This document shows positions 295 through 30,799 of a stretch of DNA of 37,527 bases, piece after piece (position 1 is the first letter of the stretch; each line of letters begins with the position of its first letter). Source of the stretch: a virus. Taxonomy: Duplodnaviria; Heunggongvirae; Uroviricota; Caudoviricetes. Below the pieces are notes generated by a model that saw only the letters and a list, made by a program, of their open reading frames with translations, was not told the DNA's origin and ran no database searches. The translations under genes were made by a program, and so were the position numbers. Where the stretch lies: IMG/VR virus record IMGVR_UViG_2737471866_000010; one strand, given 5' to 3'.

Positions 295-297
295 GGA

Positions 298-1931: not shown

Positions 1932-2346
1932 GCGTTATCGCACTCCACAGATCATCAAAAGAAATCATTACCGGTCCGTCACGACGCCAGAGAGTGATAC
2001 TGTTACCCAGCTCATTAATCCCGGTGCGGCGGATATCCAGATCAATACGGGACACCACGCCGTCATCAATCATCCATTGCAGGCATTCGCGGATATACCC
2101 CCTTACCGTCTGCACCAGCTGATTGGTCAGTTTGCTGCGCTGAAGCAGCCACAGTCGGGAGCCGTAACGGTCATTCTGTACCGCAGGCCAGGTATCCCCC
2201 CACCATCCCATCGGGACGTCGGCGTTGTCATCAGGCTCCGCCCGCCGCCAGGTAAACAGGGAAATCACCACGGCGCGGGTCAGCGGATCCAGTTGTGCGC
2301 TGGCGCAGGTGCGTTTACCGTTCACCGTCAGCCACAGTTCCATCAT
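1918..2346 (-). CDS. Baseplate protein, Mu gp46-like
   Basis: 142-aa ORF with overlapping stop/start with neighbours; synteny in Mu-type baseplate cluster. Confidence 0.55.
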   Translation of the reverse strand: MMELWLTVNGKRTCASAQLDPLTRAVVISLFTWRRAEPDDNADVPMGWWGDTWPAVQNDRYGSRLWLLQRSKLTNQLVQTVRGYIRECLQWMIDDGVVSRIDLDIRRTGINELGNSITLWRRDGPVMISFDDLWSAITHGGQ

Positions 2347-2891
2347 GCCTCCATCGCTTTATCAGGTTTGTCGGTGTTACTGCCCTGACCGTTCTCTCTG
2401 TGACGATGCCCGTTATAGGCAAGCCGCATCGCTGACATGGTGGTACCGCCGGAGTCGCACAGGTCTTTCACCTGTCCGGTCACTTCCAGGTCCATTTCAA
2501 AACGTGCTCTGGGCGCATTGAGAAACGTGATCGTTTTACCTGCACCGTCCACCACGATCCCCTCCCGGGTCAGCGTCACAGACTGCCCCTGATCGTCATA
2601 GACAGCCACCTCACCCGTCTGCAGCCCTTTCAGGCGGTAGCGCCGGTCCGACACCGTAACAACCACCGCATGAGAACGGTCGCCATCCGGAAACAACACC
2701 ACCGCTTCCGCACCGCTGTTTGCCCTTGCGGTAAAACCGTAGGGTTCAAGATGTTCAACCCCGGCTTTGGGTTCACCGGCAATCAGGGACACATCCACGG
2801 TCTGACATTTCGTGGCGGCACTGATGCTTTTCACCACTGCCCGCCCAATCAGGCCGAGGAGTTGTCGCTGCATGGCTTCAATCGTCCTCAT
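2343..2891 (-). CDS. Baseplate assembly/spike protein (Mu gp45 / gpV-like)
   Basis: 182-aa ORF; synteny and size. Confidence 0.55.
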   Translation of the reverse strand: MRTIEAMQRQLLGLIGRAVVKSISAATKCQTVDVSLIAGEPKAGVEHLEPYGFTARANSGAEAVVLFPDGDRSHAVVVTVSDRRYRLKGLQTGEVAVYDDQGQSVTLTREGIVVDGAGKTITFLNAPRARFEMDLEVTGQVKDLCDSGGTTMSAMRLAYNGHRHRENGQGSNTDKPDKAMEA

Positions 2892-3970
2892 CAGAACGGG
2901 TCCTCCTGTACTCTGGCTTTTTTCTTTTTCCGCGCGCCGGGGGCTTCGGGTTCAGGCAGATAAGCATCAGGTGGGCCGACACGGATTTCCGTCAGGGTGC
3001 CGTTCTGGTCCTGAGTAAACGTGACTTCCGAGACAAGCAGTTCGGTATTGTCGAAACCACAGACCGGATCGAAGACAATCACCCGCTGGTTGGGCTGCCA
3101 CAGCGTACCGTTACCCTGTCGCCAGCCCTGCACCACATAGGTGGTTTCATCCGTCCGCGCCGCCCGTTGTCGGGCTTCAAAGTCAGCACGCGCAATACAG
3201 CCTGCCCCCGTGGCCTGCCCTGTCTGCCTGATATACATCGGACGGTAACGGGCAATAAATGCGTCCTCTGTGCGGGCCCGCAGCGCGGTGGTGGTGGCCT
3301 CACCGAAATCATCGTCGTTTCCGGCACGCTGCCCCGCCACCTGGTAAACAGAAAACCGCTCCCGGATACTCTTCTCCGTATCGCAGGAAAGGATGTTTTC
3401 CCCGAGTACCAGCGCGGTATGTGCCCGCGTTGAGCCAATACCGCCAATCACCAGCCTGCCGTGCGGGTCGTCGTAAGCCAGTGCCTGCTGCTGACCGAGT
3501 ATTTTGTTGATCACCTCAATCACCGTTTCGCCGTGATCAGGCTGGACATCAGGAATAACACCCGACGGCGCACCGTTGTTCACCACCTCAATGCCGAAAG
3601 GCGCAGCAAGCGCCTGCGCAATCTGTACCAGCGATCGTCCGTTAAACTGTGTCGGTTCGGCTGCACAGTCAATCAGGTCAGCGGTCAGACTACGTCCGGC
3701 AATACCGGTGCTGACCGAACGGGCATCGTAACGAACGGGGGTCGCCTCCACCCAGCCGGTGATCACCAGCTCATCACCAATCAGCACTTCCACTTTTGAA
3801 CCATTTTTAATGCGCGGCTGAAGCGTGGTGATACCATCATCTCCCGGCCACTGGCGGGTGATCTCCACACTGAAATCCCGCGCCAGTCGTTCAACACCGG
3901 CACCGATGCGCACCGATGTCCAGCCATTCCACTCCCGGCCATTTACCCGTAGCGTGACATTGTCGTTCAT
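2891..3970 (-). CDS. Tail/baseplate hub protein (Mu gp44 / P2 gpD-like)
   Basis: 359-aa ORF following the DNA circulation gene, as in Mu. Confidence 0.55.
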   Translation of the reverse strand: MNDNVTLRVNGREWNGWTSVRIGAGVERLARDFSVEITRQWPGDDGITTLQPRIKNGSKVEVLIGDELVITGWVEATPVRYDARSVSTGIAGRSLTADLIDCAAEPTQFNGRSLVQIAQALAAPFGIEVVNNGAPSGVIPDVQPDHGETVIEVINKILGQQQALAYDDPHGRLVIGGIGSTRAHTALVLGENILSCDTEKSIRERFSVYQVAGQRAGNDDDFGEATTTALRARTEDAFIARYRPMYIRQTGQATGAGCIARADFEARQRAARTDETTYVVQGWRQGNGTLWQPNQRVIVFDPVCGFDNTELLVSEVTFTQDQNGTLTEIRVGPPDAYLPEPEAPGARKKKKARVQEDPF

Positions 3971-5295
3971 TGCACTGGCACCTTCAGAGGGATCACCGGC
4001 ACAAAGCCGGGATGCGTAATGGCATTACGCCGGATAATGTCCGCGTCACGCGCCGCGTTATCAAACCAGGTCGCCGCCAGCACCAGCGCGGGTAAAACCT
4101 CATCAGGTGTGCGCTGAATGATCCGTGCAGACTGTTCAAGGCGCGTGTTGATATCCGCATTCAGATCTGCTTTCACCCGGCGCAGCGCCAGAAACAGCGC
4201 ATCACTGGTTGTACGGGACAACTCCTTATCAATTGCCGTATTCAGTGTGTCGCGAATGTCGGTCAGTTCTTCCCACGTTGGCAGGTCAACCGTGTTTTTC
4301 ACCGCCGGTGCATTGTTCAGTGCCGGATGCGTGACGGAAGGCCAGCCGGAGCTCTGCGCGGGTGTTGTTGACTGCCCCACTGCGGCATTCTGCATCACCG
4401 CAGAAGTTGTTAGCGCAGGCAATCGGGTAACGGCATACGCCGCTTCGCTGATTGCAGTCGTACGAAGGGTGCTGGCAACCACGTTACGCTGCTGAGTCGC
4501 CGTGGCGGTGGTTTTACTGTCCGTTTTCCAGACGCCGCGCGGTTGCAGATCGCTGCCAAGGCTGACACCGGAAAGCGTTTTGATCATGGTGACCAGGTCG
4601 CTGGTGTTACCATAAAGGCGTTTCCCGGTACGCCACATTTTCTGCACCTGCTCAACGAAATTTTTGCCTGACGATGGCGGCGGCAGAAGTACCGAGATAT
4701 CCCCCTGCAACAGCCTGGCGGCATCCGATACGGCAGAATCCACCACTTTCATCGCATCAGAAACATACCCAAGCATTATGCTGGCATTACCGATAACGTC
4801 GTTCTGCACGAAATCCGCCACGCCATCGATACTGAAACCGCTGAAGCTGTCACTGATGCAGTCATCCAGTGCAGAACAGGATGACATCAGCGTCTGCGCC
4901 GTCGCCGCACCTGAAGTGGGGTAAGAGAGTTCTCCCGCTTCGACAAACTTCAGGTCAAAGCGGACAATACGCCCTTCACTTTTCGATGTGCTGACCCGAA
5001 CTTCACCGTCAACACAGACTTTCAGCTCACCATATGTCGGGTGGACAAGCGTGCCGGGACCGGGTTTATTCAGCGCTTCAATCAGGCGATCGCGCTGGTC
5101 AAAGCAGTCATCTCCTACCACATAAGCTGTGATGGACGGGCGGAAAGTGACTTTTCCCAGATCTTCGGTATAGGGCTTGTCGCGGTTCGGGTATTCATGT
5201 GTTTCCACACGGCGACCGGTTCCCGCACTTTCTTCTTCAACCTTAAACGGTACGCCGCGAAATGACGCGTCCTGAAGCCTGTCTTTCCACGTCAT
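3967..5295 (-). CDS. DNA circulation protein N-like (Mu gp43-like)
   Basis: 442-aa ORF immediately downstream of the tape measure region in a Mu-type tail module. Confidence 0.55.
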   Translation of the reverse strand: MTWKDRLQDASFRGVPFKVEEESAGTGRRVETHEYPNRDKPYTEDLGKVTFRPSITAYVVGDDCFDQRDRLIEALNKPGPGTLVHPTYGELKVCVDGEVRVSTSKSEGRIVRFDLKFVEAGELSYPTSGAATAQTLMSSCSALDDCISDSFSGFSIDGVADFVQNDVIGNASIMLGYVSDAMKVVDSAVSDAARLLQGDISVLLPPPSSGKNFVEQVQKMWRTGKRLYGNTSDLVTMIKTLSGVSLGSDLQPRGVWKTDSKTTATATQQRNVVASTLRTTAISEAAYAVTRLPALTTSAVMQNAAVGQSTTPAQSSGWPSVTHPALNNAPAVKNTVDLPTWEELTDIRDTLNTAIDKELSRTTSDALFLALRRVKADLNADINTRLEQSARIIQRTPDEVLPALVLAATWFDNAARDADIIRRNAITHPGFVPVIPLKVPVQ

Positions 5296-5314
5296 ATAAA
5301 CTCCGAATATAAAA

Positions 5315-5334
5315 AAACCCGCCGAAGCAGGTTT
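5315..5334. terminator. Imperfect hairpin flanked by an A-run and a T-run, candidate bidirectional intrinsic terminator
   Basis: aaaaaaacccgccgaagcaggtttt between the lipoprotein stop (5349) and the N-like start (5295). Confidence 0.35.
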
Positions 5335-5348
5335 TAATAAATTATCTA

Positions 5349-6026
5349 TTATCTAAAGTTACTTATTACTCGATACCTTATGCTTTGGTTACTCGCATCA
5401 AGTACTTCGAATTTAGCGCCTTTATAGCCAATTGTTTTAGACTCCGCGAGATCATACTCAACATCGTTGTTGAAGGCCGGGCGCGCTGTATTCGCTGAAA
5501 ATTCACGATATCCAATGTTGATTTTGTTTCCGACCCTTCCGTTGTAAAGCAGAGCTTGCTGGAAAGATGAGTCACCACTGATGTTCAGATTAACCTTTTC
5601 GATCGGCATGTTGGTTTCACAGGTGGTAGCGCCAAAAACTGTTATTACACATAAGGCATTATTTTTCTTTTCTACCATGATGCCCTGCCACATATCGGCA
5701 AGAGCTGCCTTTTCCACATTGGCTGAATCAGCACCGTTTGTGAGAAAGTAATAATCTGCCTTGTTATCCTCACCAACCTTTTTCAGCATCCCCGGAGTAA
5801 TCGTATAAGCCCAGGAAACTCTCGCGGGAGCATTAACCTTCAAACCTTCGAACTTCTGTGACTCACCCTGCTTAATCATCGAATCACCGACATAAGCTGT
5901 ATTAATGCTTCCTACAGGAGGCTCACTATAACTTTCTGTTTTTGGTAAATAATTATACTTTGGAGATGTACATCCCCCGAGTAAAAGAGCCATGCCGACA
6001 ACTGAATAAACTGTTAGAATTTTCAT
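5349..6026 (-). CDS. Lipoprotein moron (signal peptide with lipobox LLGGC); function unknown, candidate superinfection exclusion protein
   Basis: Internal ATG (M15 of ORF 5349..6068) gives MKILTVYSVVGMALLLGGC..., a classic lipoprotein signal; visibly AT-rich island between tape measure and downstream tail genes. Confidence 0.6.
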   Translation of the reverse strand: MKILTVYSVVGMALLLGGCTSPKYNYLPKTESYSEPPVGSINTAYVGDSMIKQGESQKFEGLKVNAPARVSWAYTITPGMLKKVGEDNKADYYFLTNGADSANVEKAALADMWQGIMVEKKNNALCVITVFGATTCETNMPIEKVNLNISGDSSFQQALLYNGRVGNKINIGYREFSANTARPAFNNDVEYDLAESKTIGYKGAKFEVLDASNQSIRYRVISNFR

Positions 6027-6107
6027 ATCCCTATTCCCATCATTAAATAATCGGACTAATCCTACCAAGAATCAGCAAAACGACAAAACCCGTACTTAAG
6101 CTGGCTA

Positions 6108-7889
6108 TTAGCCCCCCATACCAAACCGGGTGTAACCAACGTCGTGATTCACGTCGATACCACTGGAGCGGGTATCGGTCACCCGCATCCCGGGAGGCGC
6201 ATCCTTAAACGAGACCGTAATCTCGCCTTCAGCCTTCTTCGGCGCAGCCTGAACTATCTGATACGGATTGTATCCCTGAGCAGAAACGCCTGTACCGTAC
6301 GCCCCATAGCCACCGCCCCCCCACTGAGTCGCATTGGCTGCAACCACCGTGTCGCTGGCACCATCAGTAAACCATTCAATAATCGGCTTCAGCTTGTCCC
6401 ACATATCCTGAAACCACTTAACAACCGGCCCCCAGTTATTGATCACCATCCCCAGCGGCGACCAGGCAAAAACTTTCTTAAGGAGTTCCCAGCCAGCCTC
6501 AAAATAAGGACCAATGGTTTCCCAGAGTTTCTTAAAATAAGGTCCGACAACATCCCAGTTAGTGATAATTAATCCCGCAGCCAGGGCTATCGCCGTCGCA
6601 ATCATGCCAATCGGCGTCATCGACATGATCCTGCTGACAATACTGATGGCACTGCCCACGCCCATCAATCCCAGTTTCAGAATCGCAAGACCGGCAGCAA
6701 GCCCGACGACGCCGCGAATAACCCGGGGATTTTCATCCGCAAACTTCGTGAATTTCTCCCCCAACTCCCCCAGCCATTGCGTGATATTTTTGGCGTCACC
6801 AGAAAATGCGCCGCCAATAGCCGCAAGGCCGTTAGTTGCGGTCCCCGTCATTGCCTCCCACAGGTTGGACAGCGTACCAAGCTGGGCCTGAACACGTTTA
6901 TTCAGGCTGGCCTGTTTATTCATCTTCTGCTGGATCTGATCGTAGCCATCCTTTCCTTTATCGATTAGTGCATTGACCACCTGAAGGGTTTCGGCATCAT
7001 CACCAAATATTGCCTTAAGTACACCTGTTCGCTTAACGTCGGTCAGTTTTCGCAGCTTTGCCAGTTGCCTGAACATGTTATCAAGACCGCCAAAACTTCC
7101 TTTGCCGTCAGTAAAATCGAGCTGTACCCCGAGTTTCTGGCGGGCCATGACTTTATTGACGTCCCTGATTTTCTTAACGCTTAACCCGGACTGGATAACT
7201 TTTCGCAGGGCATTACCTGCCGACTCCCCGTTCATCCCCATCTGATCCATCATGACGCTGATGGGGGCAAGGCTCTGTGCAGCCTGAAGACCGTCCTTGT
7301 TCACCATCTTCAGAACAGAACTGGTTTTAGTGAAGAAGGACAACATGTTGGTATCGTCAACGCCCAGATAAAACGCCTTCTGGATAGTGTCGAACAGCCC
7401 CATCATGTCTTCTGACGCCGTTCCGGTAGCATCCTGCATCTTTGCAGCAAACTCAGCAGCCGCTTCCGGTGTTTTTTTCAGTTGTACCGCAAGATAAGCT
7501 GTCGCTTTACCCACACCACCCAGAATGTTTTCTGCCGGGATCCCCTGACGCACCAGCATCTGCATCATGTTCTGGAAATCAGCCGTTGTACCGGGTAGCT
7601 GGTTACCCAGGCCAATAGCCAGTTTATTGATGTCCTGAAAGCTCTTTCCGACCTCGCCGTTCGCATCCATCATGGCGACTTTCAGCCCGGTGGCGGCGTT
7701 TTCCTGATCGGCATAAGATTTCAGGGAAAGCGTCAGACCCGCTGCCAGTCCGCCACCAAGCGCCAGCCCACCCTGTGATGCTTCTTCCGCCTGGCGTTTA
7801 AATCCCCGGATTTTCTTTTGCATTTTCGACAGCGCGGGAGAAAGTCTGTCGACACCGGTGATCAACGCCTTAAGCTCAAATTCAGCCAT
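6108..7889 (-). CDS. Tail tape measure protein
   Basis: 593-aa ORF with Ala/Gly-rich helical stretches and a hydrophobic glycine-rich segment; follows overlapping chaperone ORFs. Confidence 0.75.
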   Translation of the reverse strand: MAEFELKALITGVDRLSPALSKMQKKIRGFKRQAEEASQGGLALGGGLAAGLTLSLKSYADQENAATGLKVAMMDANGEVGKSFQDINKLAIGLGNQLPGTTADFQNMMQMLVRQGIPAENILGGVGKATAYLAVQLKKTPEAAAEFAAKMQDATGTASEDMMGLFDTIQKAFYLGVDDTNMLSFFTKTSSVLKMVNKDGLQAAQSLAPISVMMDQMGMNGESAGNALRKVIQSGLSVKKIRDVNKVMARQKLGVQLDFTDGKGSFGGLDNMFRQLAKLRKLTDVKRTGVLKAIFGDDAETLQVVNALIDKGKDGYDQIQQKMNKQASLNKRVQAQLGTLSNLWEAMTGTATNGLAAIGGAFSGDAKNITQWLGELGEKFTKFADENPRVIRGVVGLAAGLAILKLGLMGVGSAISIVSRIMSMTPIGMIATAIALAAGLIITNWDVVGPYFKKLWETIGPYFEAGWELLKKVFAWSPLGMVINNWGPVVKWFQDMWDKLKPIIEWFTDGASDTVVAANATQWGGGGYGAYGTGVSAQGYNPYQIVQAAPKKAEGEITVSFKDAPPGMRVTDTRSSGIDVNHDVGYTRFGMGG

Positions 7890-8064
7890 GTGTGCGTTTC
7901 TCCTGCTCTATCCTGTTTGCCTGACTGACCAGCAAGGGAATTTCACTGATCGGCATATTCAGCAATTCGAAGGGATTAATGCGCCAGTAGCTGGCGCAGT
8001 CAAAGAAGCGATCAGTGAGGTATTCAGCCGTCAGGCCTGGAGGAAAAAACCAGCCACAAGCCAC
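7882..8064 (-). CDS. Candidate frameshift extension of the tail assembly chaperone
   Basis: 60-aa ORF in a different frame overlapping the 3' end of ORF 8031..8300 and the tape measure start. Confidence 0.3.
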   Translation of the reverse strand: MACGWFFPPGLTAEYLTDRFFDCASYWRINPFELLNMPISEIPLLVSQANRIEQEKRTHG

Positions 8065-8300
8065 GCCGCAGCATTCAGGTCTGCCGGAGACATCTGGTCG
8101 ACAGAGCTTTGCGGCACTTTCGCCAGCCGCACAATGTATTTCGACACCACATGCGCCAGAAGTCTGACGGACTCATCCTGATTCATCTGGTAGGGATACC
8201 CCAGCTCGCGGACATCCTTCCCGGTGGGTTCATCAAACTCCAGTACGGAGAGTGTCTCACCATGAGCGATAATCGGTTTCTTTAACTCAAGCTCTTTCAT
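8031..8300 (-). CDS. Tail assembly chaperone
   Basis: 89-aa ORF between the tail tube and tape measure genes. Confidence 0.5.
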   Translation of the reverse strand: MKELELKKPIIAHGETLSVLEFDEPTGKDVRELGYPYQMNQDESVRLLAHVVSKYIVRLAKVPQSSVDQMSPADLNAAAWLVAGFFLQA

Positions 8301-8656
8301 TACTGGTAATCCCCTTCTTCACCGTGGAACTCAAGATCAACCGTCCCTTCTTCGGCATTATGGTTCGCTTCTCCGTGCAGCCAGGCGGACGACAATACAT
8401 AGACCTGACCGTTCGCCAGCTCGGCAGTGATGGTCATCTCATCAGACGAGGTGATTTTGCTCACCGGAAAATTCTTCGGCACCTTGAAGGTCCCTTTGAC
8501 ATAAGGCGCACGGTGAGTTTCCTTGCGGTCCACTGAACCGTCCAGGCCGATGATGTCATCATTGACCGTCCTGTTCATGGGCACCTCAATGCCGCCGGTC
8601 AGCGATAGCTGCTGACCGTCAATTTTGAAATAACAGGTTCCCCCGATACGGGCCAT
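8300..8656 (-). CDS. Tail tube protein
   Basis: 118-aa ORF directly after the sheath gene, 1-nt overlap. Confidence 0.6.
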   Translation of the reverse strand: MARIGGTCYFKIDGQQLSLTGGIEVPMNRTVNDDIIGLDGSVDRKETHRAPYVKGTFKVPKNFPVSKITSSDEMTITAELANGQVYVLSSAWLHGEANHNAEEGTVDLEFHGEEGDYQ

Positions 8657-10152
8657 TATGCAGACTCCTCTGAATACTGAAGACGGAACTGGTTAACCAC
8701 GGCAAAAACACGCAACTGGTTAACATAGTCAGGCGGGAACAGCGTGTTCAGGCGGTTCGGATCGCTGGCATCACGCTCCACAACCAGGTACTGCTTAAAC
8801 AGTTCGTAGTTTTCCACGATCCCCGCACGCTCAAGCTGACGGTAGGTTGCCAGCAGTTCCCCTTTGATTACCGCCGGGGTGACAATCGCCTGACCGGGAC
8901 CAAAGCGGGTACCGTCGCTGGCAAGCTTGTGACGCCCGTACTTACTGGTAATGACGGATTTCAGTTTGCGCAGTACATACGCGCTGGTATGCAGCGTCTC
9001 GCTGTCGAGGTAGCTGTTATCCGCAACACCGTAAGCATTTTTCCTGTACGTGGTGACATCACGCTGAATGCGCAGCACCCCGCTTTCGACATACGCCGTT
9101 GCCACGCCATGAGACAGCAGGGTCTGCTGCTCGGTCATCGTGAACCGTTTCCCCTTCGGCGCAGGCAACATACCCACCAGCTCACCGGTCTGCGTGGGAC
9201 GTGCCGGATCGTTGCGGATAAACACCGCTGCGCGGGCGGTACGGCTTGCCGCCAGCTCGTCGGCAGGCGTCTGGGTCTCTTTTTCGTACCCCGCCAGGGT
9301 GATGTGCTGCTGGTTAAACTGGTCACCTGCGTTCACCAGTTCTGACAGTGTGCCGGTCTTTGCCGTATACACATGACCATACAGCTGACGCGCATAGCTC
9401 CAGCGACCGCTGGTATCGTTCATCTCGGTCACCAGCGTGTTAACGGAGGCCGTGTCGTTGAACGGCAGACCGATATAATCAAACGGCTCATCCGCCATTG
9501 CAGCCACCGCGCCGGTGAGAACCGGAGCGCCCGTTCCGGCGGTCCCCGTCGCCACGGCAATCTGTACGCCCGCTGGCAGTACTTCGCCCCCACCGAAGCC
9601 GTAGTAATTGAGGCTGACAGGAATTTCATTCCCGCAAAGCCCCTTATGACGCGCGGTCAGCGTGACAACACCAGCCGAAGATGAAGCTGTAAACGGCAGA
9701 GTCGGAACGGCATTGATGGCATCTTTGATACTGCTGGCAATCGTCGTGACGTTATCGCCGTTGGTCACCGGAGCCTGCACGCGGGTACGTCCCACATAGA
9801 CATTCACCGTGCCGCTTTCGGTTGCTTCCCCGGTCACCGTCAGCGTAACCGTTGCCGCCGCGCCTGTGGCTTCCGGAACGGCAATCACATACAGCTCACC
9901 AAACGGGTCGGTCTGGCGATAAGCCTCGACCATACGCGCCAGCTGACTTCCCGCACCACAAATCTGGCGTGCATAGTCTGCCGACGGCATCAGCACCAGA
10001 CTGTTGGCAACAATCTCTGCACCGTTATTGGCATGACCAATCAGCAGCGATGCTCCGCTGTCCTGTGCAGTATTCGCCGCCTGGTTATCCATTTCCGCAT
10101 AAAACAGCGGAACCAGCGTATTCGACGGAATGGTGTTAAAGCTTATCGTCAT
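8656..10152 (-). CDS. Contractile tail sheath protein
   Basis: 498-aa ORF; size and position typical of Mu/P2-type sheath. Confidence 0.8.
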   Translation of the reverse strand: MTISFNTIPSNTLVPLFYAEMDNQAANTAQDSGASLLIGHANNGAEIVANSLVLMPSADYARQICGAGSQLARMVEAYRQTDPFGELYVIAVPEATGAAATVTLTVTGEATESGTVNVYVGRTRVQAPVTNGDNVTTIASSIKDAINAVPTLPFTASSSAGVVTLTARHKGLCGNEIPVSLNYYGFGGGEVLPAGVQIAVATGTAGTGAPVLTGAVAAMADEPFDYIGLPFNDTASVNTLVTEMNDTSGRWSYARQLYGHVYTAKTGTLSELVNAGDQFNQQHITLAGYEKETQTPADELAASRTARAAVFIRNDPARPTQTGELVGMLPAPKGKRFTMTEQQTLLSHGVATAYVESGVLRIQRDVTTYRKNAYGVADNSYLDSETLHTSAYVLRKLKSVITSKYGRHKLASDGTRFGPGQAIVTPAVIKGELLATYRQLERAGIVENYELFKQYLVVERDASDPNRLNTLFPPDYVNQLRVFAVVNQFRLQYSEESA

Positions 10153-20677: not shown

Positions 20678-21712
20678 ATGACTGCATCAGCGACCCCCAC
20701 TAATATCACGCATAAGTTTATTGTTCACATTATGAACAAGGAACAACAGGGGTTAGCCACCATTATTCCTTGTCCTTCAGAAAAACCTGTTCAGCAAGCA
20801 TCAAAAGACCTCTCTAACGCACTTACTGAAAGGTACTCTGGGAGAGCAGGTAAAGGATATGGGAAATTTGAAGATGACCGCGATAGTTACCCTATGGGTA
20901 ATATCGTTGATGATTATTTCGTAAATAAAACACATAGTTTTTATGATACTAGTATCCGAATGATCAATCATTTAAAAGCCAGAGCCGATGATGAATCAAT
21001 GTCTACTGGTGGTTATGTAATAATTGCCCATAATGAGGTAAATGGAAATCATTATTTGATGGTTGCAATCCTAACTTCAGCAGTTGGCTCTTCAGTCCAC
21101 GATTTTGAAATTCAAGAAAGTGAATATCTAGACATTGCTAAACTTCGAGTAGCGGGACGAATTGACTTAACTGGGCGCCAGAATGGCAAAGAGAGATATA
21201 TTAGCTTTCTAAAGGGGCAAAATTCAGTAGCAGGTTATTTCAAAAAGTTTTTAGGTTGCAACGATATTCTAATTGCCAAACAAGAAACAACAAAATTACG
21301 GAATGCACTTTTAGAATTTGCTACTGAAAGAGGTTTTGAACCAGAGGCACGTGAAGAGTTCCTAAATAAGGCTCATGAAAAATTAAAAAATTTAAATCGT
21401 TCTGGTGAAACTTTCGACACTCAAATTTTTGCAAACGAGATATGGCCAACTGCTCCTGAGTTGTTAGTTGAAAAGTTAACCAATGACGATCTGGAGTTCT
21501 CTGATGGGTTCGTGCCTGATGGCAACGTTATACGTGGGCTTGTTAGTTTCAAAGGAAAGTCCAAACATTGGTCTCTGAAATTCGAGCGTGCGGCCTTGCA
21601 TGATGGCAGCGTTCTTTATGATTCAGAAAACGATAAATTGATACTTACCGAGATTCCGGATACGCTAAGATCAGAGATTTTATCAGAATTAGGTGAAGAG
21701 GATGAGCAGTAA
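20678..21712 (+). CDS. NdpA/YejK-family (NA37) nucleoid-associated protein homolog, prophage-encoded
   Basis: 344-aa ORF, AGGA Shine-Dalgarno 7 nt upstream of ATG; segments YLMVAILTSAVGSSV, YLDIAKLRVAGRIDLTGRQNGKERYISFLKGQ and C-terminal KFERAALHDGSVLYDSENDKLILTEIP align with E. coli YejK as recalled; AT-rich; plus strand, opposite to the rest of the prophage. Confidence 0.65.
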   Translation: MTASATPTNITHKFIVHIMNKEQQGLATIIPCPSEKPVQQASKDLSNALTERYSGRAGKGYGKFEDDRDSYPMGNIVDDYFVNKTHSFYDTSIRMINHLKARADDESMSTGGYVIIAHNEVNGNHYLMVAILTSAVGSSVHDFEIQESEYLDIAKLRVAGRIDLTGRQNGKERYISFLKGQNSVAGYFKKFLGCNDILIAKQETTKLRNALLEFATERGFEPEAREEFLNKAHEKLKNLNRSGETFDTQIFANEIWPTAPELLVEKLTNDDLEFSDGFVPDGNVIRGLVSFKGKSKHWSLKFERAALHDGSVLYDSENDKLILTEIPDTLRSEILSELGEEDEQ

Positions 21713-22880
21713 AAATCAGAGAACCTTCAAAGACTTAGTGACTATTTACAAGGCCGCTACATTTGCAGGTACCCTATCTGAAGCATCACTCATTCTTTCA
21801 AACGAGGAGCTCTGTGACATCATCAACGATATCACAGAGAATCCCCATGATTTTGGCATCACCCTTGAATCTGGCAACATTGAGTTAGGCCAAACTATAA
21901 CCTTACATATAACCCCCCCCAAATTACGATTGGGGCAGCTACATTTCTCTTTTAATGAGTATTTAAAAAATCCTAAAAATAGGATAAAGGAAGCCAGTAA
22001 CTTCTTTATAATCGAACTTAATTATCACAACAGGGATAAAAAGTCGCCTGCTATTATATCCAAGTACAGAGATGTTTTGAGCTTAATTACTTTATTCAAA
22101 GATTGTTCTGCTTATTTAGATGAAACAAATTTTGAATTGGTATTCGTCGAATCCAACGTACTAAAAATTCCAGTAAATTATTCTAGCGATGATCTTATGA
22201 ATGTTAATGGAGATCTGATTCATAATTTGATCGCAAACTTTGCAGAAGATACGCATAAAGATCAAAAACTTACTATTTTAGCAAGTAGTATAAAATCATC
22301 ATGTGAATCTAAAACTAAAGAAACCTCTTTTTCCTTCATGTTAAGGGATTTAGGACAACTTTATGAAAGTTATCAAAAAGGATACAAAGTATTCGTTTCT
22401 GGTTTTTCTTACGAGAAAATACTGGATCAGTTACGAGTAGCCAAAATAGAAGAGATGGGGAAAATACATAAAGTATTCAGTGACATACAAAATCAGATAT
22501 TAGGTATCCCCGTCGCAACAATTATCGTTGCGACTCAAATGAAGCAGGCTAATGGTTGGGATAGTCAAGCATTAATAAACACAGCTGTAGTGTTGGGTGC
22601 ATTGTTCTTCACTATTATGATTATATTTGTTCTATTTAATCAATGGCAAACTTTAACAGCAATAAATGATGAGTTAAATCATAAAAAACAACAAGCAGAA
22701 TATAACTTCAAGGCTATTTACGAAGATATAAAGGATACATTTGATAGTTTAACCACAAGATTGCTTGTTCAGAAAGTTGTTTTTGCCTCATTAGGAATTA
22801 TAGTTTTATGTGGCTTATATCTTACATTTAGATTCTACTTTTTACTTACACCTTATGCTATTACATATTTATTTAGCTGA
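21702..22880 (+). CDS. Membrane-anchored protein: ~290-aa soluble N-terminal domain plus two C-terminal TM helices; candidate effector partner
   Basis: ATG at 21702 overlaps the upstream stop by 11 nt (GTG at 21693 is an alternative start); C-terminal hydrophobic segments AVVLGALFFTIMIIFVLF and VVFASLGIIVLCGLYLTFRFYFLL. Confidence 0.6.
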   Translation: MSSKNQRTFKDLVTIYKAATFAGTLSEASLILSNEELCDIINDITENPHDFGITLESGNIELGQTITLHITPPKLRLGQLHFSFNEYLKNPKNRIKEASNFFIIELNYHNRDKKSPAIISKYRDVLSLITLFKDCSAYLDETNFELVFVESNVLKIPVNYSSDDLMNVNGDLIHNLIANFAEDTHKDQKLTILASSIKSSCESKTKETSFSFMLRDLGQLYESYQKGYKVFVSGFSYEKILDQLRVAKIEEMGKIHKVFSDIQNQILGIPVATIIVATQMKQANGWDSQALINTAVVLGALFFTIMIIFVLFNQWQTLTAINDELNHKKQQAEYNFKAIYEDIKDTFDSLTTRLLVQKVVFASLGIIVLCGLYLTFRFYFLLTPYAITYLFS

Positions 22881-25095: not shown

Positions 25096-25485
25096 TCAGG
25101 CGGCTGCACCCGCCGGTTTCTCATACTTACTGATAGTGATCTCGACCTTCCCTTTCGGGATAACCGGTCCCCACTCCACCAGCATTCTTTTCACCTGTCT
25201 GTCGTCTTCCCACACACCCGCGTGGGTCAGGGCGTCAAACAGAGCCTTGTTATAGTTGTCCAGATCGCGGATCCGGTTATCCGGAGGAAACAACACGATC
25301 TCCACTGAAGCAGGTGCCGACGTTGGTTTCGGCAGACGACGTAACTGCTCAACTATTGCTGCGCACGCCGCGCTCTGAAATTTTCGCCCCGCCTCGCTTA
25401 TCAGGCTCTTACCAGCAAATGCCCCTTTGTTGGGGTGTCGCCAGTACGTGTTCACACTGGGCGGGAAAGGAAGGATCAACTTCAT
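25096..25485 (-). CDS. rusA: Holliday junction resolvase RusA
   Basis: 129-aa ORF; LPFPPSVNTYWRH and DxDNxxKAxFDALT motifs match RusA. Confidence 0.8.
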   Translation of the reverse strand: MKLILPFPPSVNTYWRHPNKGAFAGKSLISEAGRKFQSAACAAIVEQLRRLPKPTSAPASVEIVLFPPDNRIRDLDNYNKALFDALTHAGVWEDDRQVKRMLVEWGPVIPKGKVEITISKYEKPAGAAA

Positions 25486-25808
25486 ACTTTCAGGCCCCTC
25501 TCATGTAACCAGTGGGCTGCACGCAACCTGGCGTTCTCCTCACCGGCAAGCAGTGCGCGGATGATACCGACCGCTTCGCTGTCGTCGTCCTTCACTGCGG
25601 TATGAAGCGTGATCCCCCGGGCCACGCCACGCTTTATCGTGATGACGCCTTTTTTCTCCAGTGCGCGAAGATGCTCCACCGCTGCATTCACTGAACGGTA
25701 TCCCAGCATGGTTGCCACCTCCTGATTGGTTGGCGGGAAACCACGTTCTTTCTGATAAGAAATCAGCATATCCAGCACCTGCTGCTGGCATTGAGTTAAC
25801 GTCGTCAT
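25482..25808 (-). CDS. LexA-like N-terminal DNA-binding domain protein (no peptidase domain)
   Basis: 108-aa ORF; LTxxQQxVLD...GFPPTxxEVAxxLGYRSxNAAxEHLxALxKKGVI closely parallels the LexA N-terminal domain. Confidence 0.6.
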   Translation of the reverse strand: MTTLTQCQQQVLDMLISYQKERGFPPTNQEVATMLGYRSVNAAVEHLRALEKKGVITIKRGVARGITLHTAVKDDDSEAVGIIRALLAGEENARLRAAHWLHERGLKV

Positions 25809-26458
25809 GCCGCCATCTCCCTGACCAGTTTTTCCGCCTGCTGGCGAACCTGCGCCAGAAACGCCTCACCACATGCCTCAAGTTCATCGCGCCCGATGTA
25901 GCTGATTGCCGGTCCCTTCCAGATCTTGTCGAAAACAGCAATAGCACCAGCGAAGAAAGCACCTGTCGGCACCTGCTTCTCGTCCTTCGGGATAAACCAG
26001 GCAGGCAGTTCAAAACCAATACGCCCGCGAATAAAAGCAATATGGTCCGCATCTTCCGGCCACCACACTTCACTGGTGGCAGCTTTGATCAGGAAAACAT
26101 AGCGCCCGCCTTTATCACGCATGGCACTGGCATGCTTCATGATGTAACGCATGCCGGTGATGTATTGCCCCTCATGCTGACTGGCGCGGCTGTATGGGGG
26201 ATTACCAAAGGCAGCACCTTTAAGCTCCGCAAGGCGTTCTGACCAGTCATGCGCCAGCGCGTTGTCTTCCGCCGTGTAATACGCGGCACATTTGGCGTTA
26301 TCACCGTCAGTGAACAGATCCAGAACAAACGGGCCAAACAGGGTGTTAATTCCCCAGAAAATGTTGTCCGGCGTGCGCCACTGATCGCCCACTTCCTTCA
26401 GTTCATGGGCTGGTTTGTTCCGCAGTTCCACCAGTGCCTGACAATATTTATTACTCAT
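25805..26458 (-). CDS. Phage DNA N6-adenine methyltransferase (Dam-like)
   Basis: Start at internal ATG (M12) overlapping the upstream stop (TAATG); catalytic FGNPPYS motif. Confidence 0.7.
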   Translation of the reverse strand: MSNKYCQALVELRNKPAHELKEVGDQWRTPDNIFWGINTLFGPFVLDLFTDGDNAKCAAYYTAEDNALAHDWSERLAELKGAAFGNPPYSRASQHEGQYITGMRYIMKHASAMRDKGGRYVFLIKAATSEVWWPEDADHIAFIRGRIGFELPAWFIPKDEKQVPTGAFFAGAIAVFDKIWKGPAISYIGRDELEACGEAFLAQVRQQAEKLVREMAA

Positions 26459-26952
26459 TAAGCCCCCACGTAATTCCCTGACAGATACCACTCTTCACCC
26501 GATGCAGCGCGCTTGCTGCTTTTCTGTAAGCACTGCTCACGACGCGCCAGAAAATTGTTTCGTTCTGGCTGGGAGTGGCTTTCACGGAATGCCGCCATCC
26601 ACACGGTTGCAGCACGACGGTATAAGCCCCTGGACTCCAGTTCTTCAGCCTGGCGGGTCAGGCACAAAATCACCCGTGGATCGTTAGTGCCGACATAGAA
26701 ATTGCGCACAGGTCTGGTTTCTCGAACTGGTTGTGGTTCCGGTTCCTGCGCTCTCTCAGTCAGGCGCGGGAAATGTCTGCGTGTATCTCCTTCACAACGG
26801 TGAGCCACACGCCCACTCTGACGTAACTTGCTTGCTGACTGCAGAACGCGCTGTCGTGAGTAACCTGCAAAAGCATCCGCAATGTCTCCGGAAGTACACC
26901 CCGGATGGGCTTCAATGAATTTCTGAACGTCATTCAAAAGACTCATGATCAC
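26458..26952 (-). CDS. Putative regulator with PerC-like C-terminal motif
   Basis: 164-aa ORF; ELESRGLYRRAATVWMAAF...RREQCL resembles the PerC/Pch signature; assignment from memory. Confidence 0.35.
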   Translation of the reverse strand: MIMSLLNDVQKFIEAHPGCTSGDIADAFAGYSRQRVLQSASKLRQSGRVAHRCEGDTRRHFPRLTERAQEPEPQPVRETRPVRNFYVGTNDPRVILCLTRQAEELESRGLYRRAATVWMAAFRESHSQPERNNFLARREQCLQKSSKRAASGEEWYLSGNYVGA

Positions 26953-27890
26953 CCCCTGAATCCTGCCGGGATCTGGCTGTAGTCCACGTTGTCGTAACTG
27001 GCTTTGAAGTACGGGTCTTCGCGTTTTTCGGTGTACGTGCTGACGGACGGCGATAAGCGCAGGGAAAGCTCATCCCATTTTTCCCGCAGCTTCGACGGGC
27101 TGAGCACGTTACGGCACCAGAACGGATCGCGGCTGACGCGGCTGTACATCTCGCAGATTTGTTTATGAGTACGACCATCCTGCACACACATTAGGCGAAT
27201 TTCGTTTGCCCAGGCTGTCCAGTTCGGTTCTTTGGGACGAACCACCTCGCCGTCACATTCGGCGGCATGCTCGTACAGGGCGATGATTTTTTTCCAGAGC
27301 CACTGTGCGCAGGTCAAATCATCCTGCGTTCCCCACTGACGCTTTTTAGGGCTGAATACAACCGCATCAGGATGGCGAGTTAAAAAATCCTGTTCATCCG
27401 TCTGCGTGTCCGGTTGCGAAGCGTCCGGACGAGAAGGTTTTTTATCTGACGGATCATGTTTTGATTTTACTGACGGATCCCCGCCAGATTCTGACGGGTG
27501 AAAACCCGCTTTTTTGCCAGATTTCGACGCATCAAATTTTGACGGGTCAGATTTTGATGCGTCAGATTTTGACGGGTCAGAATCTGACAGTTGAGAAAGT
27601 GCCGCTGCCTGAAGCTTTGCAACGTTAAGCTGATAGACGTTCGACGCATTGCGGTTACCCTGGCGACGCGCCTTACGCGTTAACCAGCCTTCTGCTTCCA
27701 GCCGTGCGATAGCCGTTCTGACGGTACTCATCCCCGCGCCAATCTGACGGGCAATGGTTTCAATTGATGGCCAGCACACACCTTCGTCATTACTGAAATC
27801 AGCCAGGCGGGCCATAATTGCCACGCTGGATAATTTCATGCCTGACGCTGCGCAACCATCCCATACATAGCCGGTTAATTTAGTGCTCAT
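26949..27890 (-). CDS. Replication initiator protein (O-like) with origin iterons inside the gene
   Basis: 313-aa ORF with N-terminal winged-helix-like segment; central repetitive SDSDPSKSDASKSDPSKFDASKS encoded by the iterons; first gene after cII, as O is in lambdoid phages. Confidence 0.6.
   Translation of the reverse strand: MSTKLTGYVWDGCAASGMKLSSVAIMARLADFSNDEGVCWPSIETIARQIGAGMSTVRTAIARLEAEGWLTRKARRQGNRNASNVYQLNVAKLQAAALSQLSDSDPSKSDASKSDPSKFDASKSGKKAGFHPSESGGDPSVKSKHDPSDKKPSRPDASQPDTQTDEQDFLTRHPDAVVFSPKKRQWGTQDDLTCAQWLWKKIIALYEHAAECDGEVVRPKEPNWTAWANEIRLMCVQDGRTHKQICEMYSRVSRDPFWCRNVLSPSKLREKWDELSLRLSPSVSTYTEKREDPYFKASYDNVDYSQIPAGFRG
27440..27595. repeat. Origin iterons: about 8 direct repeats of a ~15-bp unit (consensus near AGATTTTGACGGGTC)
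   Basis: Units such as agattttgacgggtc, agattttgatgcgtc, caaattttgacgggtc, gattctgacgggtg, agaatctgacagttg inside the O-like gene; coordinates approximate. Confidence 0.6.
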
Positions 27891-29198: not shown

Positions 29199-29885
29199 GT
29201 GAAAACACTGGCAGAACGATTAAAGATAGGTAGAGAGAAAGCTGGCATGAGCCAAGCTCAACTAGCTGAAAAAATTGGACTTTCACAACAATCTGTAGCC
29301 AAAATAGAGAATGGCGAAACTCTACAACCGCGCAAAATTAAAGAAATTGCAAAAGTTTTAGGTGTATCACAAAAGTGGTTACAACTTGGTATTGAAGACA
29401 ACGCATCCATACCTGATCTTGTTGTAAAAGAAGCAGAAAGCACCGCATTAGACCCCGATATTTTCGTAAACATTCCTGTTTTAGATGTCGAGTTATCGGC
29501 AGGTAACGGATGTCTGGCTGAAATAGTTGAATCAGCTATTGACTGGTTTCCATTAAGAAGAGCAGATTTGAGAAAATCTGGCGTATGTGCATCTAATGCC
29601 AAGATCGTAAAAATATGGGGGAACAGTTTATTACCGGTTCTCAATAATGGAGATCTTGTTGCCGTTGATATTTCTCAAACCGTTCCTATTCGTGATGGCG
29701 ATCTTTATGCCGTACGAGATGGTGTATTGCTAAGGGTTAAAATACTTATCAACTTACCTGACGGTGGCTTGATTCTTAGAAGCTTCAACAAAGATGAGTA
29801 CCCAGATGAAATACTCACCTTTGAAGATAGACGAGCCAGAATTCATGTTATAGGTAGGGTATTCTGGTCATCGCGAACTTGGTAA
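29199..29885 (+). CDS. cI: CI-type repressor (HTH-XRE plus S24 LexA-like peptidase domain)
   Basis: 228-aa ORF with GTG start after AGAGAGGGA; N-terminal HTH (MSQAQLAEKIGLSQQSVAKIENGE) and C-terminal autocleavage-type domain (A-G pair in LSAGNG, GNSLLP Ser motif, later Lys). Confidence 0.85.
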   Translation: MKTLAERLKIGREKAGMSQAQLAEKIGLSQQSVAKIENGETLQPRKIKEIAKVLGVSQKWLQLGIEDNASIPDLVVKEAESTALDPDIFVNIPVLDVELSAGNGCLAEIVESAIDWFPLRRADLRKSGVCASNAKIVKIWGNSLLPVLNNGDLVAVDISQTVPIRDGDLYAVRDGVLLRVKILINLPDGGLILRSFNKDEYPDEILTFEDRRARIHVIGRVFWSSRTW

Positions 29886-30758
29886 TGCATCGAAAAGCAT
29901 TTCTTCAGAAATAATTTTAAGTTTTGCACCATTATCATCCCTATAAGATATAGCCTTTTCGATCTTCCTTCCGTGACTTGAGAATTTCCAATCACGGGAG
30001 GAAAGCGTCCCAATTACTAAAAAATCCAACTTTTGAGTAATTCCACTACTGATGTTCCCACCAGCATTTTTAATCAAATTTTCAACTACGGCTCTCTTTC
30101 CTGCAACAAAAGTGCCTGTAAGACAATAGGTTTTACCCTCTAACTCTATCGAAGCCCCTACATCAATAGGCAGCCTGGTCGCCAAACCATCCACCACCCC
30201 ACTTTCCAAGTCACATCCTGTGAAGTCTACTAATGCCTTATGTAGAGTTAAACTCTCATCTTCAGTAATAACACCATCTTTAAGAATTTCCTTTACAAGT
30301 GCATAAAGTTTTTTTCCTGGGTAGTTGTTCTTCAAAGCTCCATTTTGCTCAAGCCACCAATTAAGATATCTTATTTCTTCTTGAGTTAAGTTCCGATCAG
30401 CAATTAATCCTTTACATAGTCCATTAAGTAAATGGACATCTACATCCTTGGAGTAAAAATCAATTTCAGGGATATCAAGAATTTCCCTCTGTATTTGGAG
30501 AAGGCTATTTTTAAGGTCATCACGTTCTTCTGATGTGATTATTCCATCCGCAAGAATATCCGACACCCGTGCTGATAGACTTTTTATAACTCCATTATTG
30601 ATAATCTGCTTTGCTTCAAGTAACCATGTATCTAAGTAAAGAACCTCCTCTTCACGGACAACTCCATCTGCAATGATTCCATCAATGATGCTAATCAAGT
30701 TAGCAAATAACTTGTCCCGGTTCTGTGTGTAATTAAAAGCGTAAAGCGCGTCTTCCAT
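29868..30758 (-). CDS. BRCT-domain protein with four N-terminal ~40-aa helical repeats; moron in the rex-like position
   Basis: Start at internal ATG (M11) preceded by AAGGAGG; repeats carrying DG[VI][IV]T/REEE; C-terminal GKTYCLTGTF...LDFLVIG...KLKIISEEMLFDAL resembles the BRCT domain of NAD-dependent ligase; AT-rich; convergent with cI, overlapping its 3' end by 18 nt. Confidence 0.6.
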   Translation of the reverse strand: MEDALYAFNYTQNRDKLFANLISIIDGIIADGVVREEEVLYLDTWLLEAKQIINNGVIKSLSARVSDILADGIITSEERDDLKNSLLQIQREILDIPEIDFYSKDVDVHLLNGLCKGLIADRNLTQEEIRYLNWWLEQNGALKNNYPGKKLYALVKEILKDGVITEDESLTLHKALVDFTGCDLESGVVDGLATRLPIDVGASIELEGKTYCLTGTFVAGKRAVVENLIKNAGGNISSGITQKLDFLVIGTLSSRDWKFSSHGRKIEKAISYRDDNGAKLKIISEEMLFDALPSSR

Positions 30759-30799
30759 ACAACCTCCTTTTTTTGATAATCCTTGCACTCCTTGGCTAC

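Follow-up and report, generated by a model that had tools for sequence, protein, structure and literature searches.

The founding members of the PerC family (Pfam PF06069), namely PerC of EPEC and PchA, PchB and PchC of EHEC prophages, are encoded on mobile elements, and it is for PerC and PchABC only that activation of the LEE has been shown. The founders match the Pfam model over all 90 of its positions at 143–149 bits and carry a second motif that reads ...A....MG[IL]......FR, and PerC, PchA, PchD and PchE alike are single-domain proteins of 89–104 aa whose matches span model positions 1–90 at 124–153 bits. PchD, PchE and EcCIMP1_025 are also PerC-family proteins borne on mobile elements and are not LEE activators, yet they too are single-domain, full-length matches at 124–153 bits. 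PchD and PchE do not activate the LEE (PMC6265319), PchE is a repressor of csgD and has a positive effect on flagellar genes (PMC6265319, PMC7369912), and the PICI-encoded PerC homologue EcCIMP1_025 represses LEE1, its authors noting a similarity to ANR proteins (PMC11773190).

In the characterised relatives, the PerC/ANR-type module alters transcription by interfering with silencers of the H-NS family (PMC4764244, PMC10148876). Pch is found on AT-rich DNA within regions covered by H-NS and reduces the occupancy of H-NS/StpA (PMC4764244). The proteins of the ANR family (Aar, Rnr), about 60–70 aa long and lacking a winged helix, are encoded in company with AraC-family genes and serve as anti-activators that work through contact with other proteins (PMC4983702, PMC10148876). 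The partners in this protein–protein contact are H-NS and AggR for members of the family and H-NS and Ler for Rnr, so that AraC-family or Ler regulators are acted upon as well (PMC10148876). PchA did not co-precipitate H-NS in the work of Fukui et al. (PMC4764244), and partner binding by the PerC core is therefore not established.

Here we analyse a PerC-family gene of a lambdoid prophage that is contained in a stretch of 37,527 nucleotides of Caudoviricetes DNA (IMG/VR record IMGVR_UViG_2737471866_000010), referred to below as the window.

The yfdN gene and its setting in the early operon

The listing of open reading frames in the window gives a minus-strand ORF at 26458..26952, counted as 164 aa from a GTG at 26952, which is the form annotated by RefSeq and in K-12 and also the one adopted in the initial annotation. 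The ORF itself is real, but its true start is likely to be the ATG at 26946 (MSLLND..., 162 aa) rather than the GTG, because a GGGGG Shine-Dalgarno precedes this ATG and every divergent homologue starts at an equivalent ATGAG[TC]. The protein is identical to K-12 YfdN (b2357) at 158 of 162 residues (98%) and belongs to the YfdN subfamily by its full-length likeness to the K-12 protein and by the architecture that they share; a PHROGs search matched phrog_1324 at 3.5e-78 over residues 2–163, and the orthologues carry the PGAP/RefSeq name 'yfdN: PerC family transcriptional regulator'. The window ORF is thus orthologous to E. coli yfdN, a gene already annotated and known. With a dN/dS of 0.09 against K-12 yfdN and of 0.23 against SfV orf40, the gene is therefore under purifying selection. 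Literature searches for yfdN returned incidental mentions only, as listings in overexpression and computational screens, and Uhlich et al. (2018) termed yfdN 'the K12 unique PerC homologue' (PMC5931665). A role in anti-phage defence was considered and dropped, the PADLOC search having returned no anti-phage defence match for YfdN.

The gene and its neighbours are arranged as follows:

25805..26458, minus strand: Dam-type N6-adenine DNA methyltransferase gene, directly downstream of yfdN (Pfam Dam, 5e-45; TIGR01712, 1.3e-75)
26458..26946, minus strand: yfdN orthologue, with its ATG at 26946, 162 codons and a TAA stop codon at 26458-26460
26949..27890, minus strand: O-like replication-initiator gene, directly upstream of yfdN (N-terminal HTH_36 in Pfam; phrog_391 at 3e-134)
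27518..27581, inside the initiator gene: four 15-bp iterons (tandem-repeat search)

The start of yfdN overlaps the stop codon TGA of the initiator gene (GTGATCATG), and its end overlaps the start of the methyltransferase gene (TAATG), whose ATG begins on the final A of the yfdN TAA. As read from the sequence, yfdN is translationally coupled to both genes within the early-right (replication) operon; the minus strand of the window shows neither a promoter-like nor a terminator-like site belonging to yfdN itself, its GC content of 54% is similar to that of the neighbouring genes, and the PGAP annotation of a near-identical prophage gives the same layout with a methyltransferase gene of 654 bp. 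The earlier placement of the gene in a 'nin-like region' was roughly right and can be narrowed to this slot directly between the O-like initiator and the Dam-type methyltransferase genes. In 14 locus types among IMG/VR loci, which involve at least four initiator families, yfdN comes directly after the replication-initiator gene, as it does in the window, K-12, SfV, F1055 and 118970_sal3. In this respect it is unlike perC, which belongs to the perABC operon of EPEC (pEAF/pMAR2), and unlike pchA, which lies in a late region near lysis genes and IS elements, neither of them following a replication gene; pchE is found in the Sp7 satellite, within a run of genes for replication and packaging.

So invariable a position could point to a replication-linked role instead, in which YfdN would be an accessory factor in the slot of lambda P and a partner of the O-like initiator, and might recruit or regulate the host helicase or modulate the firing of the origin. 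The stop/start overlap with the initiator gene recurs across the locus types, and no recognisable P, DnaB or DnaC gene is present in the window or in the PGAP-annotated near-identical prophage. The C-terminal domain of the initiator is homologous to that of lambda O (39% identity by tblastn), the domain by which O binds P, and the four iterons just upstream of yfdN are probably the origin. We nevertheless regard a replication factor as unlikely. The initial annotation had left room for an unrelated replication-associated family, and YfdN matched no replication family in Pfam, NCBIfam or PHROGs, lambda P and the DnaC and DnaD loaders included, while in a BLAST database that held lambda-type P and the Sakai Sp4 replication protein, YfdN homologues matched YfdN only. 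The gene is, moreover, dispensable in related phages: in Klebsiella phage 1 LV-2017 and Citrobacter phiNP the same or a 72%-identical initiator runs straight into the methyltransferase gene, and phage cdtI, which in view of its deposited 'complete genome' record we take to be an inducible, viable phage, retains only a remnant of 30 codons (MSLL...DAF followed by YVGD).

The last 24–33 residues of the initiator (...DYSQIPAGFRG) are kept beside yfdN in initiators that otherwise diverge. We rejected this conserved tail as a sign of contact between O and YfdN, because phages that lack yfdN have ...GFRG too and because its codons double as the Shine-Dalgarno of the next gene.

The downstream neighbour raises the alternative that YfdN controls the adjacent DNA methyltransferase in the manner of the C-proteins of restriction-modification systems, setting the timing or the level of the methylase. 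A DNA methyltransferase gene comes next in most yfdN loci, the enzymes belonging to three unrelated PHROG families (111, 359 and 116/56), and in the SfV record a promoter for dam is marked within the 3'-terminal part of the yfdN orthologue. Against such a controller stand four loci (L019, L024, L067 and L068) with no methyltransferase after yfdN, the phages without yfdN that keep the methyltransferase in the same slot, the lack of a promoter-like site at the 3' end of yfdN in the window, and the lack of any likeness of YfdN to C-proteins, and we consider it very improbable.

Domain architecture and relation to PerC, Pch and ANR proteins

Counted from the ATG, the protein divides into four parts:

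26767..26946, minus strand: predicted N-terminal winged-helix domain, residues 1–60, with three helices and a beta-hairpin wing
26680..26766, minus strand: Pro/Glu-rich linker, residues 61–89, of variable length and predicted to be disordered
26503..26679, minus strand: PerC/ANR-type core, residues 90–148, with three predicted helices in a TPR-like fold
26461..26502, minus strand: conserved C-terminal tail, residues 149–162, ending ...EEWYLSGNYVGA and predicted to be disordered (pLDDT <50)

The AF2 model is confident for the winged helix and the three-helix core and disordered for the tail and the linker (pLDDT <50 at residues 63–84), the latter differing in both length and sequence among homologues, and the order of winged helix, linker, PerC core and tail is kept in 30 relatives, down to 23% identity. 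The N-terminal domain of the predicted model has the MarR/ArsR/MecI-like arrangement of three helices and a beta-hairpin wing, its recognition helix and wing being very basic. The core is predicted to form a TPR-like three-helix unit, with a helix-turn-helix pair packed by G-x-Ar-x2-A-x3-Ar-x2-A and a capping helix, a three-helix fold class that matches many things; the corresponding TPR-turn motif, G-x-Y-x2-A-x3-W-x2-A, is common to YfdN, PerC and PchA. A profile search of PDB sequences with YfdN returned chance matches only and no solved structure. That the N-terminal domain might be homologous to lambda Ren was considered and discarded, the match to phrog_142 being weak (E 0.0096) and a BLASTP comparison with the Ren-position winged-helix protein being empty.

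A PerC/Pch signature had been noted in the C-terminal part of the protein, and profile searches bear it out. The string on which that recognition relied, ELESRGLYRRAATVWMAAF...RREQCL, is found at residues 102–140, and the Pfam PerC model scores 36.3 bits (E 6.7e-9; gathering threshold 22.6 bits) at residues 100–151 of the 164-aa form. When aligned with PerC, PchA, PchD, PchE and others, the window protein has nine of the nine invariant or near-invariant core columns, with the motif A100-x3-E104-x2-G107-x-Y109-R-R-A112-x3-W116-x2-A119 ... R135/136 ... C139; the core of about 50 residues that PerC, PchA/B/C and YfdN have in common carries the invariants A..LE..G.[YW]RRA...W......R......C, and PchA and YfdN are 39% identical over 44 residues. 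The match to the Pfam model is confined to positions 5–56 of 90 and leaves out the half with '...MG[IL]......FR', and, unlike the small single-domain family members (~89–104 aa), the window protein has 162–164 aa, with an additional N-terminal winged helix, a linker and a tail of its own, which in the alignment reads WYLSGNYVGA. On the strength of its sequence, then, the C-terminal part of YfdN is a genuine PerC-family domain, but YfdN is not a Pch/PerC-type protein. Where PerC and Pch have '...MG[IL]...FR', the YfdN subfamily is marked by the tail pattern [WC]xL[AS]Gx[YF]xG, in which W153, L155, G157, Y159, V160 and G161 are invariant among close homologues and G157 and G161 remain nearly invariant down to 23% identity.

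The same core is co-linear with the ANR model (NCBIfam NF033650), which YfdN matches at 22.1–23.0 bits, below the curated cut-off of 32 bits, and which PerC and the Pch proteins match, likewise co-linearly and below threshold, at 13.6–18.2 bits. The ANR signature comprises A10, E14, A22, W26, A29, W43 and R47 on three helices (PMC4983702). Five of these seven residues have counterparts in YfdN that fit the spacing exactly (A100, E104, A112, W116 and A119), whereas on helix 3 F132 and R135/R136..C139 are shifted in register by 1–2 residues. The cores of the ANR family and of YfdN have in common three helices, equally spaced A, E, A, W and A, an R..C on helix 3 subject to this shift, and a predicted TPR-like fold, which is typical of proteins that bind other proteins or peptides. 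These likenesses make it possible, if rather doubtful, that YfdN is an ANR-like anti-regulator that works purely by protein–protein binding, a repressor or anti-activator and not an activator, whose target would be H-NS, Ler, an activator of the AraC family or a regulator of the phage, with the winged helix serving as a second protein-contact surface. The repression of LEE1 by the ANR-resembling EcCIMP1_025 (PMC11773190) and the binding of H-NS and Ler by Rnr (PMC10148876) agree with such a role. The scores on the ANR model, by contrast, stay below the cut-off; ANR proteins are free-standing single domains of about 60–70 aa beside AraC-family genes, whereas YfdN has two domains in 162 aa and no AraC-family gene was found in the yfdN neighbourhood; and the very basic recognition helix and wing suggest DNA contact.

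Distribution of yfdN and the question of LEE activation

Of 5426 complete E. coli genomes, 2681, or about half, contain the yfdN region and only 697 contain LEE1, so that at least 1984 carriers are without the LEE; K-12 is one of these, and some other carriers are LEE-positive O157 and O111 strains. The gene is an accessory gene of SfV/mEp460/CPS-53-type lambdoid prophages, being present in SfV, SfII, SfIV, mEp460, Stx2c phages and ST64B, whose sb43 is 68% identical to the window YfdN. In the K-12 element CPS-53/KpLE1, YfdN is of equal length and has the same neighbours in truncated form, yfdO being the O-like gene and yfdM the methyltransferase gene; only a remnant of a prophage, CPS-53 lies at argW, whereas the window prophage, at thrW next to proA, looks complete.

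Positions 1–9000 of the window are 100% identical to E. coli LF3-1, which has no LEE at its selC, pheV and pheU sites. LF3-1 was nonetheless ruled out as the host of the window, because the early region of its prophage differs, being of the lambda O/P/Ren type, and the result at these three sites thus does not apply to the window. For the early half of the window, the best match in the genome collection covers only 88%.

From the PerC signature, the initial annotation had drawn the suggestion of a Pch-like activator, one that would switch on ler/LEE or other Ler-regulated loci in the lysogen and by which the prophage would modulate virulence. The common PerC core, with its Pfam score above threshold and all core invariants, is compatible with this, as are the LEE-positive carriers, and Uhlich et al. 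took the precaution of deleting yfdN in the K-12 strain that carried their ler::lacZ reporter (PMC5931665). Taken together, the evidence leaves the suggestion unsupported, and we hold it to be very unlikely: what YfdN has in common with the LEE activators is the core of about 50 residues, combined with an extra winged helix and without the PerC/Pch C-terminal motif, its place in the early replication operon is unlike that of pchA, and its carriers far outnumber the LEE1 genomes. K-12 W3110 presumably carries CPS-53 and with it yfdN, as in the MG1655 annotation. The EHEC LEE1 promoter in W3110 is nonetheless reported to be silent unless pch is supplied (PMC4764244). Full-length family members also speak against the suggestion, as PchD and PchE fail to activate the LEE and the PICI homologue represses it (PMC6265319, PMC11773190). 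More broadly, yfdN is unlikely to be a dedicated virulence switch, because it is found in about half of the complete E. coli genomes, most of them without the LEE, and where this widespread prophage gene is labelled 'PerC family', the label does not warrant the reading 'LEE or virulence activator'.

A proposed two-part regulator of the early operon

The explanation that we favour as a whole, at a probability of roughly one half, is that YfdN is a two-part protein of the early operon that modulates the activity of a nucleoid protein or regulator. We infer the following course of events. Upon prophage induction or phage infection, YfdN would be made together with the replication initiator, and its basic N-terminal winged helix would, most plausibly, place it on particular DNA. 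There, the basic PerC/ANR module and the tail may contact a host or phage regulator or a nucleoid protein, and such contact would change the expression of phage or host genes, by either activation or repression.

A wider proposal, which we offer tentatively and would not call likely, is that proteins of the YfdN type form a distinct class, in which a single TPR-like PerC/ANR module is joined to a winged helix and co-translated with the initiator, so that upon induction an anti-silencing or anti-regulator activity would be tethered to specific DNA and the start of phage replication linked either with a remodelling of nucleoprotein complexes of the H-NS type or with control over the adjacent methyltransferase; PerC, Pch and ANR proteins would then make up one superfamily of TPR-like regulator-binding modules. 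If the two-domain reading of YfdN is true, the protein offers an accessible model for the action of PerC/ANR-type modules and may help to account for the diverse effects of PerC homologues on one promoter, which some activate, some repress and some leave alone. What is understood of virulence would gain only modestly, unless YfdN proves to have a target in the host.

The ANR-like account of YfdN overlaps with the favoured explanation; what sets the two apart is chiefly whether the effect is activating or repressing and whether the protein binds DNA.

Identity and domain architecture of YfdN

The string quoted in the initial annotation, which proposed a PerC/Pch-like regulator, is present in the following ORF:

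26458..26952 (-), yfdN, 164 aa from GTG in the ORF listing

The annotated form in RefSeq and in Escherichia coli K-12 likewise has 164 aa. The true start is, judging from the sequence, more likely the ATG at 26946 (MSLLND..., 162 aa), two codons 3' of the GTG, because a GGGGG Shine-Dalgarno sequence precedes it and an equivalent ATGAG[TC] starts every divergent homologue. The protein has 158 of 162 residues in common with K-12 YfdN (b2357, from the cryptic prophage CPS-53), and purifying selection acts on the gene (dN/dS 0.09 against K-12 and 0.23 against phage SfV). Neither the gene nor its family label is new, and the gene is extremely common: of 5426 complete E. coli genomes, 2681 matched an 801-bp query centred on yfdN, with almost every match at 95-99% identity; PGAP labels the E. 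coli orthologues "yfdN: PerC family transcriptional regulator"; and the gene is also carried by phages SfV (orf40, annotated "transcriptional activator"), SfII, SfIV, mEp460, Ayreon, and many Stx2c phages, as well as by ST64B-type Salmonella phages at 68% identity. Uhlich et al. (2018) refer to yfdN as "the K12 unique PerC homologue" and, as a precaution, used a ler::lacZ reporter strain from which they had deleted it, reporting no activity for the gene (PMC5931665); the other literature matches for yfdN are only incidental listings in screens.

A HMMER comparison with the Pfam PerC family (PF06069) gave 36.3 bits (E 6.7e-9) against a gathering score of 22.6, the match spanning model positions 5-56 of 90, and the proposed family assignment is therefore correct at the domain level. 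An AlphaFold2 model built on 14 homologues predicts, with confidence, a winged helix at the N-terminus (helices 3-13, 19-25, and 31-44, hairpin 47-60; pLDDT about 90), a disordered Pro/Glu-rich linker (residues 63-84), three confident C-terminal helices (90-105, 109-122, and 126-148), and a disordered tail (150-162), although this ...WYLSGNYVGA tail is among the most conserved stretches of the protein. We regard the identity and architecture of YfdN as nearly certain.

A separate subfamily related to PerC, Pch, and ANR proteins

The founders of the family, taken for comparison from annotated genomes (PerC of pMAR2; PchA, PchD, and PchE of O157 Sakai), are single-domain proteins of 89-104 aa that match the whole Pfam model at 124-153 bits, whereas YfdN has neither the full-length match nor the single-domain size and aligns with them over the core only (39% identity to PchA across 44 residues). 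The invariant core residues A, L, E, RRA, W, R, and C are all kept in YfdN, but the second conserved motif of the PerC/Pch group, ...A....MG[IL]......FR, C-terminal to the core, is replaced by YfdN's own tail. An exhaustive HMMER search across 1.84 billion cluster representatives returned 155 matches at E of 0.001 or better, which, leaving aside fragments, fusions, and a few long proteins, sort into three groups: two-domain proteins, 133-165 aa long, in which winged helix, core, and a [WC]xL[AS]Gx[YF]xG tail all persist even at 23% identity; short proteins with the core plus the YfdN-type tail; and short PerC/Pch-type proteins. On this sequence grouping, YfdN is therefore assigned to a separate, coherent subfamily.

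The NCBIfam ANR model gives co-linear matches to YfdN, PerC, PchA, PchD, PchE, and several short relatives at 11.5-28 bits, all below its cut-off of 32. The published ANR signature comprises A10, E14, A22, W26, A29, W43, and R47 (PMC4983702); A100, E104, A112, W116, and A119 of YfdN correspond at exact spacing, and helix 3 corresponds once a small register shift is allowed. These co-linear matches and the shared spacing make the PerC core and the ANR proteins look like one superfamily of three-helix modules, a link that is not new, since ANR matches for a PICI PerC homologue had already been noticed (PMC11773190).

yfdN and pchA also differ in genomic placement: yfdN belongs to the early operon, and pchA is a late-region gene with lysis genes and IS elements next to it. 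In O157 Sakai Sp7, pchE (L011 16772..17044) lies in a small satellite-like element immediately 5' of the packaging genes, in the order integrase, primase, SSB, pchE, and then capsid and terminase genes. This placement, together with the frequency of PerC-family genes in Gram-negative PICIs (PMC11773190), suggests that these genes play a part in the life cycle of the element that carries them.

Coupling to the replication initiator

All genes of the cro-like to Q stretch are on the minus strand, in the order cro-like, CII-like (CP76), DUF4222, O-like initiator, yfdN, Dam-type methyltransferase, LexA DNA-binding-domain-only protein, RusA, KilA-N, DUF968, and Q. The features discussed here are:

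26949..27890 (-), O-like replication initiator with an N-terminal HTH_36 domain
27518..27581, four tandem 15-bp putative iterons inside the O-like gene, consensus CAGATTTTGACGGGT
25482..25808 (-), 108-aa protein consisting of a LexA DNA-binding domain (Pfam 2.9e-19) without the protease domain

The C-terminal domain of the initiator shares 39% identity with the corresponding domain of lambda O, and the 15-bp repeats, which encode the SDPSK/SDASK repeats of its linker, are probably origin iterons, an arrangement also seen in the lambda ori within O. At its start yfdN overlaps the stop codon of the initiator gene, and at its stop it overlaps the ATG of the methyltransferase gene. With 54% GC it resembles its neighbours, and a search of the minus strand found neither a promoter-like nor a terminator-like site belonging to it; yfdN is an integral early-operon gene and is presumably expressed together with the replication genes. 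The LexA-domain protein, which might be a LexA competitor or a non-cleavable repressor, is kept at the same position in most related loci.

YfdN-type genes (22-47% identical) lie directly 3' of a replication-initiator gene in 14 of 14 locus types. Among these are SfV, F1055, 118970_sal3, and IMG/VR contigs retrieved with four divergent queries, and at least four PHROG families (391, 428, 270, and 9773) are represented among the initiators. The next gene usually encodes a DNA methyltransferase of one of three unrelated families: phrog_359 (loci L021, L025, L045, and L047), phrog_116/56 (L003 and L050), or phrog_111 Dam (the window, L052, L053, L061, and L066), the last sometimes fused to a long C-terminal extension. 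In this slot the methyltransferase function is conserved while the gene itself is replaced. The remaining interest lies in the two-domain YfdN subfamily with its fixed coupling to the initiator.

The idea that YfdN is itself a replication protein deserves attention because its gene takes the place of lambda P and the window contains no recognisable helicase loader; however, YfdN has no similarity to loader families, the initiator is directly followed by a methyltransferase in Klebsiella phage 1 LV-2017 (initiator 72% identical) and Citrobacter phiNP, and in phage cdtI (L005 3001..3100) yfdN is cut to a 30-codon remnant, MSLLNEVQKFIEAHPGCTSGDIADAF|YVGD*, by an internal in-frame deletion that preserves the original start and stop and the dam coupling. 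YfdN is accessory, and a modulatory role in replication is also possible. We considered the initiator tail ...IPxGFRG as a contact site for YfdN and rejected it, as the tail also occurs in phages without yfdN. The longer form ...DYSxIPxGFRG is common to otherwise unrelated initiator bodies (window 26949..26990; equivalents in L019-L061), and its GFRG codons (GGN TTC AGR GGN) provide the following gene with its Shine-Dalgarno sequence, which may explain part of its conservation.

Regulatory role and other features of the window

The LEE1 operon occurs in 697 of the 5426 complete genomes compared with 2681 for yfdN; therefore at least 1984 carriers (74%), K-12 among them, are without LEE, and the suggestion that the prophage modulates host virulence is unsupported. 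Strain W3110, used by Fukui et al., presumably carries yfdN, as we assume from the MG1655 annotation. The EHEC LEE1 promoter in K-12 was reportedly activated only when pch was supplied (Fukui et al., PMC4764244). Within the family, LEE activation is confined to PerC and PchABC: PchD and PchE do not activate LEE, PchE instead repressing csgD and raising flagellar genes (PMC6265319, PMC7369912), EcCIMP1_025 is a LEE1 repressor (PMC11773190), and LEE is also repressed by Rnr, an ANR protein that binds H-NS and Ler (PMC10148876).

Within H-NS regions, Pch is found on AT-rich DNA, and it lowers H-NS/StpA occupancy (PMC4764244); ANR proteins directly bind H-NS and AraC-type regulators (PMC10148876). 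By analogy with these relatives and from its architecture, YfdN would be produced early after induction, dock on DNA through its winged helix, and engage a regulator or nucleoid protein through its TPR-like core and conserved tail, altering transcription; we hold this mechanism tentatively, at somewhat less than even odds, and place identity, architecture, and mechanism together at about 0.5.

Two further regions merit description:

20678..22880 (+), island of roughly 30% GC between Q and the lysis genes, on the strand opposite to its neighbours
29868..30788 (-), 306-aa early-left protein with a C-terminal BRCT domain (Pfam 1.4e-6)

The island encodes a full-length NA37/YejK-type nucleoid-associated protein (Pfam 8e-69) and then an overlapping 395-aa ORF with no match in Pfam or PADLOC; in the near-identical prophage DLI.6n, the slot is taken instead by an ATP-dependent nuclease and a cytosine methyltransferase. 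The 306-aa protein weakly matches the PADLOC candidate system PDC-S48 (2.7e-7). The best match to the window's early region reaches 88% coverage only. In E. coli LF3-1 (L018, NZ_CM139230 3569971-3607497), the thrW/proA site is likewise occupied by a prophage, which is 100% identical to the window over at least 1-9000 (tail genes) and has its head, tail, and terminase genes at matching coordinates (1..~20000 compared), with a lambda-type O/P/Ren replication module replacing O-like/yfdN/dam, a clear case of module exchange.
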